From contig JAAFIM010000007.1 of NCBI GenBank assembly GCA_013297745.1, forward strand, positions 747 to 64,746: 64,000 bases of DNA. The letters run 5' to 3'. Each line of letters opens with the position of its first letter. The stretch's first letter is position 1. Shown here in pieces: positions 61,092-64,000 of the stretch. The stretch comes from Chitinophagales bacterium. Its GTDB lineage: Bacteria > Bacteroidota > Bacteroidia > Chitinophagales > Saprospiraceae. The translations under genes and the position numbers were made by a program. Under the pieces are notes generated by a model. It saw nothing but the letters and a program-made list of their open reading frames with translations, was not told the origin of the DNA and did not search any database.

Positions 61092-63764
61092 ATGGAGAGC
61101 CAGAGCAAACGACAACTCAAAAATGTAGACACAGAACAAACGGAAGAAAATAAACAGAATGACAATTTTTGGCAAAAGTTTATCACCACAGATAAAGCAA
61201 AAGCGCATTTAGCCGCTTTGACCAAAAAAGACCCAAATGGCGGCAATGAAGGGATTACTCCGCTAAAACAAGGGGATAAAAATTATGATGTAATTGCGCA
61301 AAGGTTGATACGCGAAAAACTTGTTCCAGCCAATACAGACCCAAAAAAATTGGCGGCGGACTTACGCAAATGGAATGAAGGGCATATGTCGGAGTCTACT
61401 TTAAGTGTTGGAACTTTAGGCAAAGAGGGGCATTTAATAGGTAAAAATATCTATTATAAAAACCCGTTGCACTATCCTGCCCCATCTTTAAATCACCAAC
61501 AACGTCACCCAGCAGGACACAGTAGCAACCCTAATTCTATGTCTATAGATAAGCCAATGCCTACTCGCAAATATATTATTGACGAGTTTAAACTTGGCGA
61601 TGGTGGTAAAATGGATAATTATCCTCCCAAGACTCTATACATAGAAGGGATAATGCCCAATCACCATTTGGACACTCGTCCTTATGATAATTCGGTGAGG
61701 CGTGAACAAGCTGAATGGGAATTTCAAAATAACCCTTGGAATAAGTGGTTTCAGCCTACTTTAGATTTATTTGACATAAAAGCCACAATGAAAAAAGCTG
61801 CTCAAAATAGCAGGCAACCATTGGGTATGCCGCCCAATACGCGACAAAATTACAACAGAACAGCTCAGCGAACCCAAAGCGCGAAAAATAGCCCTCCTAA
61901 TCAAACGCCAAAAGATGATAAAACTTATCAATATAACCCTTTTGAGCAGTATCAAAATACAACCAACGGGCAAAATACAACCAACAGGCAAAATACAACC
62001 AATGGGCAAAATACAGCCAATGGGCAAAATACAACCAACGGGCAAAATACAACCAACGGGCAAAATACTAAACCAGTTAAAAACACGGGGGTAAACAATA
62101 ATACGCCCAATCAAACCAAGAATACGCCTAATGCTGAAGAAAAAGCGAAGCTAAAGTTGGTGGGCGAAAATAAAAAATTGCTTACACCTGAAGAGCAAAA
62201 TGCTTTCCAACAGCTTATAGAAAATGGGTTTCATTCTGATACTAAAAATGGTAAAAGTCGTCAGCAATTCAATGACGAACTAGAAGTTCTTTATCAAAAA
62301 GTAAAAACTAAACTTGCTAATCCAAGCGAAAATTCTAAAAACTCAACCTTACCCTCCACACGGGAAGAGGCAGACCAGTTATTGCTTCGCTTAAACGACA
62401 AGAGTTTGACTAAAGAAGAGCGCGCTTTTGCGAATAACTACAATAGGGTAAAAACCCTGAAAAAACAAGCAGAAGCTAAAGGCTCAGTAGGCGTAAAGAT
62501 GGATGATAATGACTTAAAAACCATACAATTGCAATTCGCTTACGGAATAGAACTCAGCCCAGACCAACAAGCAACTTGGGATGCTTATTGGAACGAAAAA
62601 GCGGGTTTAAAACCCAAAAATACCAAAGCAACTGCCGATAAGGTGGAGACTGAACAGCCCACAAAAACAGAAACTGGAAAAGTGGAAACTGAACTGCCTA
62701 TGGAAGTAGTTGTTGGTTTGAATAAGGAGTTATTGGATAAACTAAACTCCACTACAAATGGCGATAAAGCCAAAGAAGCCAACATCAAAAGAATAAGTAT
62801 TCTGTATGAAAAAGCAGACGCTAACCAAAAAGAAGTATTGGACTTACTACTGCAACATTATACCAAAAATAATGTGGAAATACCAACAAGCAACGCGCTT
62901 GAAAGAATAGTAAATAATGCTGCAAAGCTAAAAACTACTTATAAGAATTTGCCTGATAATCTGCAAAAAGATTTGTTAGAAATGCTCAAATACACAGACC
63001 AAAAAACTGCTGTTTGGGTCGTGGATATAGCAGATTATTACAGCAAAAAATGCGATGATACGCAAAAAGCATTTGTAGAGAAAATGCTAAAAGAATCTAT
63101 TGCAAATAAAAAACCTTGTAGCCAAGCCGAAATAGCCCAAGCCTTTAAAGCTGCTAACCCTGATTATGGTAAATCTGAAAATTGGGAATTTTTTGTAGAT
63201 GCTGACCCAACCAAAGCTAAAAAGTTAAAAGATGCTGGCTTTGATATAGAAAAAGTACGTTTGGCTGACCCAGAGACTAGAGCAGCCGCAGTTGAAAAAC
63301 TGAAAAAAGATTTGGCAGAAGAAAGCCTTGAAAAAATAAAAGGTAATCCTGGATACCTGCAAGGTACGTACAGCGTCAATGGTGGCGCAAAAGAAACTTT
63401 TGATAAAACTACTACGTCCATAGGTGCTGACAGTAAAACAGCAATAGAAATGAAGGAAAAACCAATTTTTGGCTTGCACGCTACTAATGGCAAAGGAGAA
63501 TTAAAGAAAAACGCTGACCCCAACGTGAGGGACGAAGAAGGGTTTTTTATACGTGTTACAGACGCTGAACACCAATTGATGTATGAATTTGCCAAACAAT
63601 TAGGTTGCAAAAAAGGCGACGTGCGCCCTGATGTAACTGGCCAATTTTATTTGGCATCTTGGAATCCTTACTGTCCTGCTTGTCAGGAGACCGTTTTGGA
63701 ATTTCATCAAATGTTCCCCAATCTGGAACTAATTTTAATTGATAACCTTAAAAATGTAAAATAA
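61092..63764 (+). CDS. Large repetitive protein with internal 7-aa tandem repeat and C-terminal toxin-like module (possible polymorphic toxin)
   Basis: No signal peptide. 6 x QNTTNGQ is encoded by a perfect 21-bp tandem repeat (61951..62076). The last ~100 aa read ...FIRVTDAEHQLMYEFAK...NPYCPACQE..., an acid/His ... CxxC arrangement reminiscent of, but not matching, HxE...PCxxC deaminases. Confidence 0.45.
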   Translation: MESQSKRQLKNVDTEQTEENKQNDNFWQKFITTDKAKAHLAALTKKDPNGGNEGITPLKQGDKNYDVIAQRLIREKLVPANTDPKKLAADLRKWNEGHMSESTLSVGTLGKEGHLIGKNIYYKNPLHYPAPSLNHQQRHPAGHSSNPNSMSIDKPMPTRKYIIDEFKLGDGGKMDNYPPKTLYIEGIMPNHHLDTRPYDNSVRREQAEWEFQNNPWNKWFQPTLDLFDIKATMKKAAQNSRQPLGMPPNTRQNYNRTAQRTQSAKNSPPNQTPKDDKTYQYNPFEQYQNTTNGQNTTNRQNTTNGQNTANGQNTTNGQNTTNGQNTKPVKNTGVNNNTPNQTKNTPNAEEKAKLKLVGENKKLLTPEEQNAFQQLIENGFHSDTKNGKSRQQFNDELEVLYQKVKTKLANPSENSKNSTLPSTREEADQLLLRLNDKSLTKEERAFANNYNRVKTLKKQAEAKGSVGVKMDDNDLKTIQLQFAYGIELSPDQQATWDAYWNEKAGLKPKNTKATADKVETEQPTKTETGKVETELPMEVVVGLNKELLDKLNSTTNGDKAKEANIKRISILYEKADANQKEVLDLLLQHYTKNNVEIPTSNALERIVNNAAKLKTTYKNLPDNLQKDLLEMLKYTDQKTAVWVVDIADYYSKKCDDTQKAFVEKMLKESIANKKPCSQAEIAQAFKAANPDYGKSENWEFFVDADPTKAKKLKDAGFDIEKVRLADPETRAAAVEKLKKDLAEESLEKIKGNPGYLQGTYSVNGGAKETFDKTTTSIGADSKTAIEMKEKPIFGLHATNGKGELKKNADPNVRDEEGFFIRVTDAEHQLMYEFAKQLGCKKGDVRPDVTGQFYLASWNPYCPACQETVLEFHQMFPNLELILIDNLKNVK

Positions 63765-63766
63765 AT

Positions 63767-64000
63767 ATGACAGAACATTTTGTTTGGACTATGGGTACTA
63801 ATGGGGTAGGCGACCACTTTCGGAGCAAAGGACAAACCTCCTTTCCCATACCAGCAGAAAACTGGGCTATGGCTGAGGAATTTTGCAGAAATTTGCACTT
63901 TAAAGTACGCGCTTATGACCAAGTACAAAATGTATTTTGGTTGGATTTAGACCCAAAATTGGAAGGTGTATTGTCAGGTACGCATTTGTTTAATTTTGGT
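63767..64000 (+). CDS. Hypothetical protein (partial; possible immunity partner of upstream gene)
   Basis: ATG 3 nt after the upstream stop. Open to the window end (MTEHFVWTMGTNGVGDHF...). Confidence 0.3.
   Translation, partial: MTEHFVWTMGTNGVGDHFRSKGQTSFPIPAENWAMAEEFCRNLHFKVRAYDQVQNVFWLDLDPKLEGVLSGTHLFNFG

Follow-up and report, generated by a model that had tools for sequence, protein, structure and literature searches.

A probable deaminase toxin–immunity module, deleted at its 5′ end, in an uncultured member of the Bacteroidota

Introduction

DddA (SCP1.201 clade, BaDTF1), SsdA (DYW-like, BaDTF2), and Taylorella BaDTF3 (Pput_2613-like) are experimentally characterized interbacterial DNA deaminase toxins. 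In each, a C-terminal cytosine deaminase is the toxin and an immunity gene lies next to it; they act in interbacterial antagonism and are mutagenic to their targets (PMC7901873). Compared to DddA and SsdA, the deaminases of PF14424, which correspond to the BURPS668_1122 clade, are little characterized. Here we describe a locus of this kind in a window of 64,000 nucleotides (the whole stretch of DNA analyzed; positions 747 to 64,746 of the forward strand of contig JAAFIM010000007.1, Chitinophagales bacterium, assembly GCA_013297745.1). We interpret the locus, in all probability correctly, as a two-gene deaminase polymorphic toxin–immunity module of which this particular copy has suffered a deletion at its 5′ end.

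In members of the BURPS668_1122 clade, DxE replaces HxE/CxE, helix 2 contains RxxDxExK, and helix 3 contains CxxC(xS); either K or Q is allowed two residues past the Glu, an insert precedes helix 2, and the domain is often truncated after helix 3 (Iyer 2011, PMC3239186). SCP1.201 has been named as a clade related to BURPS668_1122 (Iyer 2011, PMC3239186), and PF14424 members showed cytidine deaminase activity on single-stranded DNA (ssDNA) in base-editor assays (bioRxiv 10.1101/2023.05.21.541555). The module in the window comprises the following open reading frames (ORFs) and domain:

61092 to 63764, plus strand: 890-amino-acid (aa) ORF, read as a 5′-deleted allele of a polymorphic toxin gene, with an ATG that the deletion would have put in frame
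63327 to 63761, plus strand: C-terminal toxin domain (aa ~746-890, ~145 aa), predicted deaminase of the BURPS668_1122 clade (PF14424)
63767 to 64000, plus strand: gene predicted to confer immunity to the toxin, truncated by the window end; its full-length orthologue at the related locus L003 encodes 220 aa

The 890-aa ORF is present where a preliminary description of this DNA had placed it, and an exact-protein look-up found no identical protein on record for its product.

A C-terminal domain with the signature of a toxin-deaminase clade

Three motifs mark the C-terminal domain:

aa 752-758: NPGYLQG
aa 821-828: RVTDAEHQ
aa 861-864: CPAC

RVTDAEHQ and CPAC are both present, and the toxin-like C-terminus proposed in the preliminary description is supported. 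The same description considered a deaminase assignment weak because HxE is absent. That objection falls because the clade signature is RxxDxEx[K/Q]…CxxC, which RVTDAEHQ…CPAC fits, DxE being normal for the clade. For annotation, this settles an otherwise ambiguous motif: DxE…CxxC is what one clade of toxin deaminases normally carries. Not far beyond the strand LELILID the domain ends, and the protein ends 26 residues past the CxxC; an end so close to helix 3 and strand 4 agrees with the published account of the clade (Iyer 2011, PMC3239186).

Against the Pfam family PF14424 (‘Toxin-deaminase’), the last 167 aa scored 23.2 bits (E = 8e-5) and the complete protein 19.4 bits. This was the sole Pfam match below 1e-3, and the weaker matches were only to other deaminase families (SNAD4 and NAD2). 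A homologue of the window protein, P0001, clears the gathering cutoff of PF14424 (30.5 vs 29.6 bits). Scanning metagenomes with the alignment of the window and P0001 domains recovered 11 relatives or loci (tblastn E = 6e-24 to 4e-8), among which the five toxin ORFs that were scanned scored 49-58.5 bits against PF14424. A hidden Markov model (HMM) constructed from seven relatives, with the window protein and P0001 excluded, gave the window protein a score of 83.6 bits across aa 775-887, as compared to 7.2 bits for the best of 1000 shuffled C-termini, and this too supports a deaminase.

In an alignment of nine sequences, the R, D, E, both Cys, and an F..MFPN..L.L..D tail are conserved, with the two Cys invariant in all nine. 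The window reads R821-V-T-D824-A-E826-H-Q828 where relatives read RTTDSEYK and L014 has EYQ. The published trailing ‘xS’ is missing from C861-P-A-C864-Q-E in the window, as it is from the aligned relatives. Judged by these comparisons, the C-terminal domain clearly appears to belong to the BURPS668_1122/PF14424 toxin deaminases and to be homologous to solid members of that group. We infer that D824 is a zinc ligand, E826 the catalytic residue, and C861 and C864 further zinc ligands. Other searches were negative: word-index searches with the C-terminus alone or with the window/P0001 alignment returned no matches, PDB sequence searches with the toxin domain returned no meaningful match, NCBIfam had no match for the toxin or its C-terminus, and PHROGs had none for the toxin.

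A profile of the window and P0001 C-termini did match plasmoredoxin in the PDB (E = 0.003) over a strand-CxxC-helix-strand segment, as a thioredoxin-like CxxC redox module might. In that match, however, the CxxC is out of register, with the first Cys of the query falling on the second Cys of plasmoredoxin, and on this ground the thioredoxin reading was rejected. No thioredoxin-type Pfam family was matched at E ≤ 1 as opposed to three deaminase families, the R-x-x-D-x-E helix is without a thioredoxin counterpart, and relatives reach 49-58 bits on PF14424. We therefore give a redox module almost no credence.

A shared N-terminal domain joined to alternative C-termini

The first part of the toxin is a domain that is specific to its family:

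61116 to 61946, plus strand: family-specific N-terminal domain (aa 9-285, ~260 aa), corresponding to no database family

This domain is 53-62% identical to P0001, P0002, and P0003, and it is rare. A full-length search recovered only two homologues, and an exhaustive search with a profile of the first ~290 aa recovered six proteins among 1.84 billion representatives. Scanning GTDB genomes and JGI metagenomes with an alignment of the domain revealed no relatives, nor was there a match in Pfam, NCBIfam, PHROGs (where homologues bearing the domain were scanned as well), or the PDB. A beta-alpha-alpha stretch at aa ~54-97 (GITPLKQGDKNYDVIAQRLI…LAADLRKWNEG) resembles LysM by eye only; AlphaFold2 (AF2) gave strand-helix-helix at a predicted local distance difference test score (pLDDT) of only 52-72, and no Pfam family matched the stretch at E ≤ 1.

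Homologues join this domain to C-termini of different types:

P0001: PF14424 deaminase, above the Pfam cutoff
P0002: EndoU nuclease, above the cutoff (33.5 vs 25.3 bits)
P0005: EndoU-like, sub-threshold (23.6 vs 25.3 bits)
P0004 and the L003 protein: unannotated domain with H-x-H..LEV
P0006: another type

Hypervariability of the C-terminus, which the preliminary description had singled out for checking, is thus what the family displays: the shared N-domain is followed by a deaminase, an EndoU, an H-x-H, or another C-terminus. By its architecture, the family of the 890-aa protein is one of polymorphic toxins, in which a shared N-terminal part is combined with alternative and unrelated C-terminal toxins.

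The C-terminal domain of P0006 (encoded at L007 23-1652) contains EGNHRYIAGKIYG and had no Pfam match. A pentapeptide-repeat protein follows P0006 and may be a DNA-mimic immunity protein.

Cassette switching at a syntenic locus

Locus L003, a JGI metagenome contig of 10.9 kb, is syntenic with the window. The two share ~90% DNA identity across the upstream genes and the first ~125 toxin codons, and the neighboring Aminotran_4 aminotransferase is 93% identical at the protein level. In blastn alignments, window 59630-61122 corresponds to L003 100-1594 and window 61114-61465 to L003 1768-2119. The match then resumes at the last 31 deaminase codons and continues into the downstream gene. Between these matches, L003 has the body and C-terminus of another toxin together with that toxin's partner gene, followed by a scar, the 220-aa immunity orthologue, and a core acyl-CoA ligase. 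The scar (in L003 4396-4575) consists of 47 nt of the N-domain fused to the last 31 deaminase codons (CPACQQTVLEFHKMFPNLELILIDNLKNVK*), and the intact immunity orthologue (L003 4576-5238) lies directly after it. Retention of the immunity gene after destruction of its toxin is the classic orphan-immunity pattern. At one chromosomal site of an uncultured member of the Bacteroidota, the pair of loci offers a clean natural case in which cassettes have switched, an orphan immunity gene has been retained, and a 5′ end has decayed.

The L003 toxin is itself divided by an in-frame TAA (L003 2799-2801) into parts of 418 and 237 aa in the same frame. The 237-aa second part bears the unannotated H-x-H..LEV C-terminal domain that is also present in P0004.

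Covariation of the downstream gene with the toxin

At every locus, the gene after the toxin starts 3-27 nt past the toxin stop or overlaps it. In the window, the fragment of this gene is 91% identical at the protein level to L003 4576-5238 and 32-35% identical to the ORF that follows the P0001 deaminase toxin (L001), and it is unrelated to the ORFs that follow the EndoU and H-x-H toxins of the family. Downstream genes are accordingly homologous only where the toxin is the window-type deaminase (the window, L003, and L001). The toxin–immunity pairing suggested in the preliminary description is well supported by this covariation with toxin type and by the orphan copy kept in L003, and the gene is predicted from these comparisons to be the cognate immunity gene. 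Neither of the outcomes which that description had named as counting against it, a conserved and non-toxic C-terminus or an unrelated downstream gene, was encountered.

The downstream ORF does begin at 63767, 3 nt past the toxin stop, and is cut by the window end, as had been described. The start itself is better placed elsewhere: in L003 the corresponding upstream ATG is directly followed by TAA, so the conserved start is probably ATG 63791 (MGTNGVG). The window-type immunity protein (220 aa in L003) had no match in Pfam, PHROGs, or the PDB, and the window fragment had none in NCBIfam.

In more distant relatives of the deaminase, the next gene encodes a SUKH/SMI1_KNR4 protein or a member of a family of ~80 aa, often in orphan arrays. 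SUKH is listed as an immunity family for the BURPS668_1122 clade (Iyer 2011, PMC3239186). The ~80-aa family also occurs in orphan arrays beside 3′ remnants of toxins, and orphan remnants and immunity arrays were observed at L016, L017, L020, and L021.

Two further observations concern immunity genes of relatives. An immunity-gene island at L016 2884-6692 includes three paralogous members of the ~80-aa family that accompanies deaminases. At least one of them adjoins a deaminase 3′ remnant (tblastn match at 5795-6437), and the group is preceded by three paralogous ORFs of 134-148 aa and one ORF of 161 aa. In addition, the putative immunity proteins at L002 2066-2608, L003 3595-4374, and L004 4376-5356, which follow different toxin types (EndoU vs H-x-H), have in common a C-terminal module of 45-70 aa (…LLIREQIELxFLxKIQAADSLxxLQSIxNE…) with 39-65% identity.

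The covariation also bears on whether the domain could be a catalytically dead or non-toxic deaminase fold, for example one that binds nucleic acid, with the downstream gene as an unrelated neighbor. Inactive members of the clade are present in Perkinsus (Iyer 2011, PMC3239186), and in the window protein Gln replaces Lys after the catalytic Glu and CPAC replaces CxSC. Yet all four of the predicted metal-binding and catalytic residues (D, E, C, and C) are retained, Gln is an accepted variant in the clade that is also found in L014, and the downstream gene covaries with the toxin and was retained beside the toxin scar in L003. We consider a dead domain very unlikely.

Loss of the 5′ end in the window copy

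Comparison with L003 locates a deletion at the start of the toxin gene:

61073 to 61153, plus strand: putative ancestral start and leader remnant of 26 codons, encoding MADDRLYGEPEQTTTQ, then out-of-frame residues and TAA
61114 to 61122, plus strand: deletion junction, with a single AACTCAAAA vs two copies 182 bp apart in L003 (1586-1594 and 1768-1776)

The 182 bp between the two L003 copies of AACTCAAAA are missing from the window, a loss of about 60 codons that also shifts the frame. Window 61073-61120 is 100% identical to aa 1-16 of P0003, MADDRLYGEPEQTTTQ (tblastn), and the start equivalent to 61073 lies at 1545 in L003. As a length of 182 bp is not divisible by three, the former frame now ends at TAA 61151-61153. 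The counterpart of ATG 61092 in L003 (at 1564) is out of the toxin frame and opens a junk ORF of 72 aa. Residues 1-8 of the 890-aa ORF (MESQSKRQ) come from the old leader read in another frame. L003, P0002, and P0001 carry ~75 additional N-terminal residues that form a conserved polar leader, and the deleted part holds a motif, AEKAxF..ADNTTTFAETEKRxFxIKLQTxEFWSKLKN, that is strongly conserved in each of the three relatives whose 5′ end can be seen. These alignments indicate that the ancestral start is ATG 61073 and not ATG 61092, which had been taken as the start in the preliminary description, where the deletion and frameshift went unnoticed. With the conserved leader lost and the called N-terminus a deletion accident, the window allele is probably export-defective or a recent pseudogene.

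An intact and functional 890-aa toxin would instead start at ATG 61092, with a short native N-terminus and normal export. Its ORF is unbroken for 2.67 kb, and the whole N-domain from LKNVDTEQ onward is kept. Translation in Bacteroidota is independent of a Shine-Dalgarno sequence, so initiation at 61092 is possible. This account has to be set against the L003 alignment, in which that ATG is out of frame despite 90% identity, against the persistence of the ancestral ATG 61073 and 16 codons that run into a stop, and against the loss of a motif kept in all three relatives whose 5′ end is visible. We regard a native start at 61092 as unlikely.

Another explanation is that the deletion is an artefact of assembly or sequencing and that the real gene is intact with a full MADD… leader. 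The junction does fall in a 9-bp direct repeat within A-rich sequence, and suspicious interruptions occur in related metagenomic contigs, such as the G9 run in L001. A 182-bp collapse across a 9-bp repeat, on the other hand, is not normal for assemblers, and the junction is clean, with flanks that align at 90-91% and no other anomalies. An artefact is in our judgment less probable still than a native start.

The nine-G run in L001 (435-443) lies between an ORF with a MADD… start (316-447) and the main toxin ORF (434-2515), which is in a different frame. Either the homopolymer was misread in sequencing or the tract is prone to slippage.

Composition of the toxin between its terminal domains

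Three features lie between the N-terminal domain and the deaminase:

61953 to 62068, plus strand: tandem repeat of an 18-bp unit, 6.4 copies with 93% matches (Tandem Repeats Finder), encoding QNTTNG hexads in an N/T/Q-rich linker
62073 to 62318, plus strand: helical segment after the linker (…LLTPEEQNAFQQL…LYQKVKTK), common to some family members
62319 to 63326, plus strand: K/E/A/L-rich middle region, seen only in the window protein

Low complexity of the first half, as initially described, is evident in its richness in N, K, T, and Q and above all in the 54 aa at 287-340 (33% N, 26% T, and 13% Q). The repeat had been described as a perfect array of six 21-bp units encoding QNTTNGQ heptads; the unit is actually 18 bp, and the encoded QNTTNG hexads include one R variant and one A variant. 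Homologues have low-complexity linkers at this position that are not repetitive. Identity of the helical segment is 37% with P0003 aa 338-415 and 27% with P0004 aa 329-393. The K/E/A/L-rich region had no homologue and, beyond the hexad repeat, no internal repeat was detected in the middle region, which may act as a spacer or entry domain.

The 890-aa protein is without any hydrophobic segment (maximum Kyte-Doolittle mean over 15 aa of 0.86), which means that it possesses neither a signal peptide nor a transmembrane segment. On the signal peptide this agrees with the preliminary description, and the same holds for the intact relatives.

Proposed mechanism and its standing

We propose that the module is inserted between core genes of an uncultured member of the Bacteroidota that is possibly Saprospiraceae-like. 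The toxin would be composed of the N-terminal domain, an N/T/Q-rich linker, a helical middle region, and the ~145-aa deaminase, with a ~75-aa leader at the front in intact relatives. Following delivery into a competitor cell, the domain would bind zinc via Asp824, Cys861, and Cys864, with Glu826 as the proton shuttle, and would deaminate cytosine, most likely in ssDNA, such that C-to-U damage and mutagenesis halt growth. Cytosine deaminase activity and toxicity are ascribed to the window domain by analogy with PF14424 members that are active on ssDNA. The downstream protein of ~220 aa would bind and neutralize the toxin in producer and kin cells. Recombination in the conserved 5′ part may exchange toxin/immunity cassettes between strains and thereby leave scars and orphan immunity genes such as those in L003. 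In the window copy, a 182-bp deletion at microhomology would have taken the conserved leader and shifted the frame, leaving 61092, an ATG in frame by chance, as the sole point from which the long ORF can be translated. Export of the toxin has then probably ceased, and the gene would be a young pseudogene or yield a truncated product, while the immunity gene may still be useful. The comparisons themselves show the homology, the modular variation, the covariation of the downstream gene, and the deletion; substrate, toxicity, neutralization, and export belong to the proposal.

Several observations weigh against this interpretation. The window protein falls short of the PF14424 gathering cutoff (23.2 bits for the domain and 19.4 for the whole protein vs 29.6 bits), and the seven relatives in the HMM were retrieved via motifs of the window/P0001 alignment and are a biased sample of the clade. 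AF2 reached a pLDDT of 42 for the C-terminal domain, modeled from an alignment of two sequences, and of 46 for the whole N-domain, both too poor for fold assignment; the C-terminal model predicted the last 67 aa only as a helix-strand-strand-helix-strand order, and with it Foldseek found no match at E ≤ 0.001. No known trafficking domain was identified in the window protein (no signal peptide, no tail of the type IX secretion system [T9SS], and no known marker domain). A Pfam scan of 40 of the other window ORFs likewise identified no genes of a type VI secretion system (T6SS) or extracellular contractile injection system and no secretion apparatus. With respect to the deletion, the rest of the 2.6-kb ORF is intact, and a truncated protein may for this reason still be made and used. 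The 182-bp loss could in principle be an assembly error, and three of the four family loci with visible 5′ or middle parts are interrupted (the window by its deletion, L001 by the G9 frameshift, and L003 by a TAA). Such interruptions, frequent in a family this small, may stem from sequencing error, decay, or phase variation.

The kind of system is already known, and the locus does not overturn current understanding. What is new is the immunity family and a scaffold of the rare, unannotated N-domain and leader. The components of this rare N-module are the MADD… polar leader, the AEKAxF..ADNTTTFAETEKR..EFWSKLKN motif, and the ~260-aa LysM-like domain. The undescribed N-domain hints at a new delivery route. 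A more far-reaching possibility, which we put forward with considerable reserve, is that the N-module defines an undescribed route of polymorphic-toxin export or delivery in poorly sampled Bacteroidota, in which case the interruptions would reflect phase-variable or counter-selected expression and not sequencing noise. A compact (~145 aa), divergent deaminase with its own immunity protein would also enlarge the pool of candidates for base editing.

Genomic context

The best GTDB match to the neighboring aminotransferase was a Saprospiraceae metagenome-assembled genome at 38% identity; since the nearest genome by this gene is only 38% identical, the lineage is unsampled. The 40 ORFs scanned elsewhere in the window belong to housekeeping or defense-type families, or to no family, and are those of a member of the Bacteroidota with T9SS substrates. 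A reading of the 890-aa protein as T9SS cargo was ruled out, as it has no signal peptide and its C-terminus is the toxin and not Por_Secre_tail.

Elsewhere in the window, four regions were of separate interest:

7694 to 10153, minus strand: protein of 819 aa whose N-terminal part is a caspase domain (Peptidase_C14), the long rest being unannotated
13091 to 15624, minus strand: defense-like group of an AAA_15/AAA_21 ATPase and a GmrSD_N (DUF262) protein
17485 to 21087, minus strand: defense-like group of a leucine-rich repeat protein, two unannotated ORFs, and an AAA_21 ATPase
30756 to 33245, plus strand: bacterial protein of 829 aa homologous to the eukaryotic major vault protein (Pfam MVP_shoulder at E = 1.2e-29 and also Vault_3), adjoining a D-arabinono-1,4-lactone oxidase-like gene

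Comparison with known systems

Among described systems, the BURPS668_1122-clade toxin deaminases, such as the predicted deaminase CdiA-CT of Yersinia intermedia ATCC 29909, resemble the window protein in the DxE within RxxDxEx[K/Q], the CxxC of helix 3, the insert before helix 2, and truncation soon after helix 3. In both, a large modular protein carries the domain at its very C-terminal end, and the immunity gene, predicted in the case of the window, lies directly downstream. The window differs in its carrier, an undescribed N-terminal domain in place of CdiA, Rhs, PAAR, or WXG, and in its partner gene, which is not Imm2, Imm3, or SUKH. Its domain is also divergent, in that CPAC stands in for CxSC and Gln for Lys.

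Like DddA, SsdA, and BaDTF3, the window locus combines a predicted C-terminal deaminase toxin with an adjacent predicted immunity gene. Those three toxins belong to other deaminase clades, and DddA and SsdA are T6SS effectors with known delivery.

Rhs/CdiA-type loci with displaced orphan cassettes (Zhang et al. 2012, PMC3482391) resemble the locus in organization. The window likewise has a conserved 5′ part followed by a variable toxin and immunity gene; a related strain carries a new cassette, then the 3′ remnant of the old toxin and an intact orphan immunity gene (L003); and relatives of the window toxin have immunity arrays. Unlike Rhs/CdiA proteins, the window protein contains no Rhs/YD or filamentous haemagglutinin repeats and no PAAR, VENN, HINT, or PT-TG domain detectable with Pfam, and its family is much smaller (about 660-960 aa when intact) and without a signal peptide. 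Of the features by which Zhang et al. (2012) recognize polymorphic toxins, a secretion module was not found in the window protein, which has no signal peptide and no marker of type V, VI, or VII secretion systems or of the Photorhabdus virulence cassette, and whose N-terminus is non-hydrophobic in intact relatives too. Alternative C-termini, a covarying immunity gene, and cassette displacement are all present.

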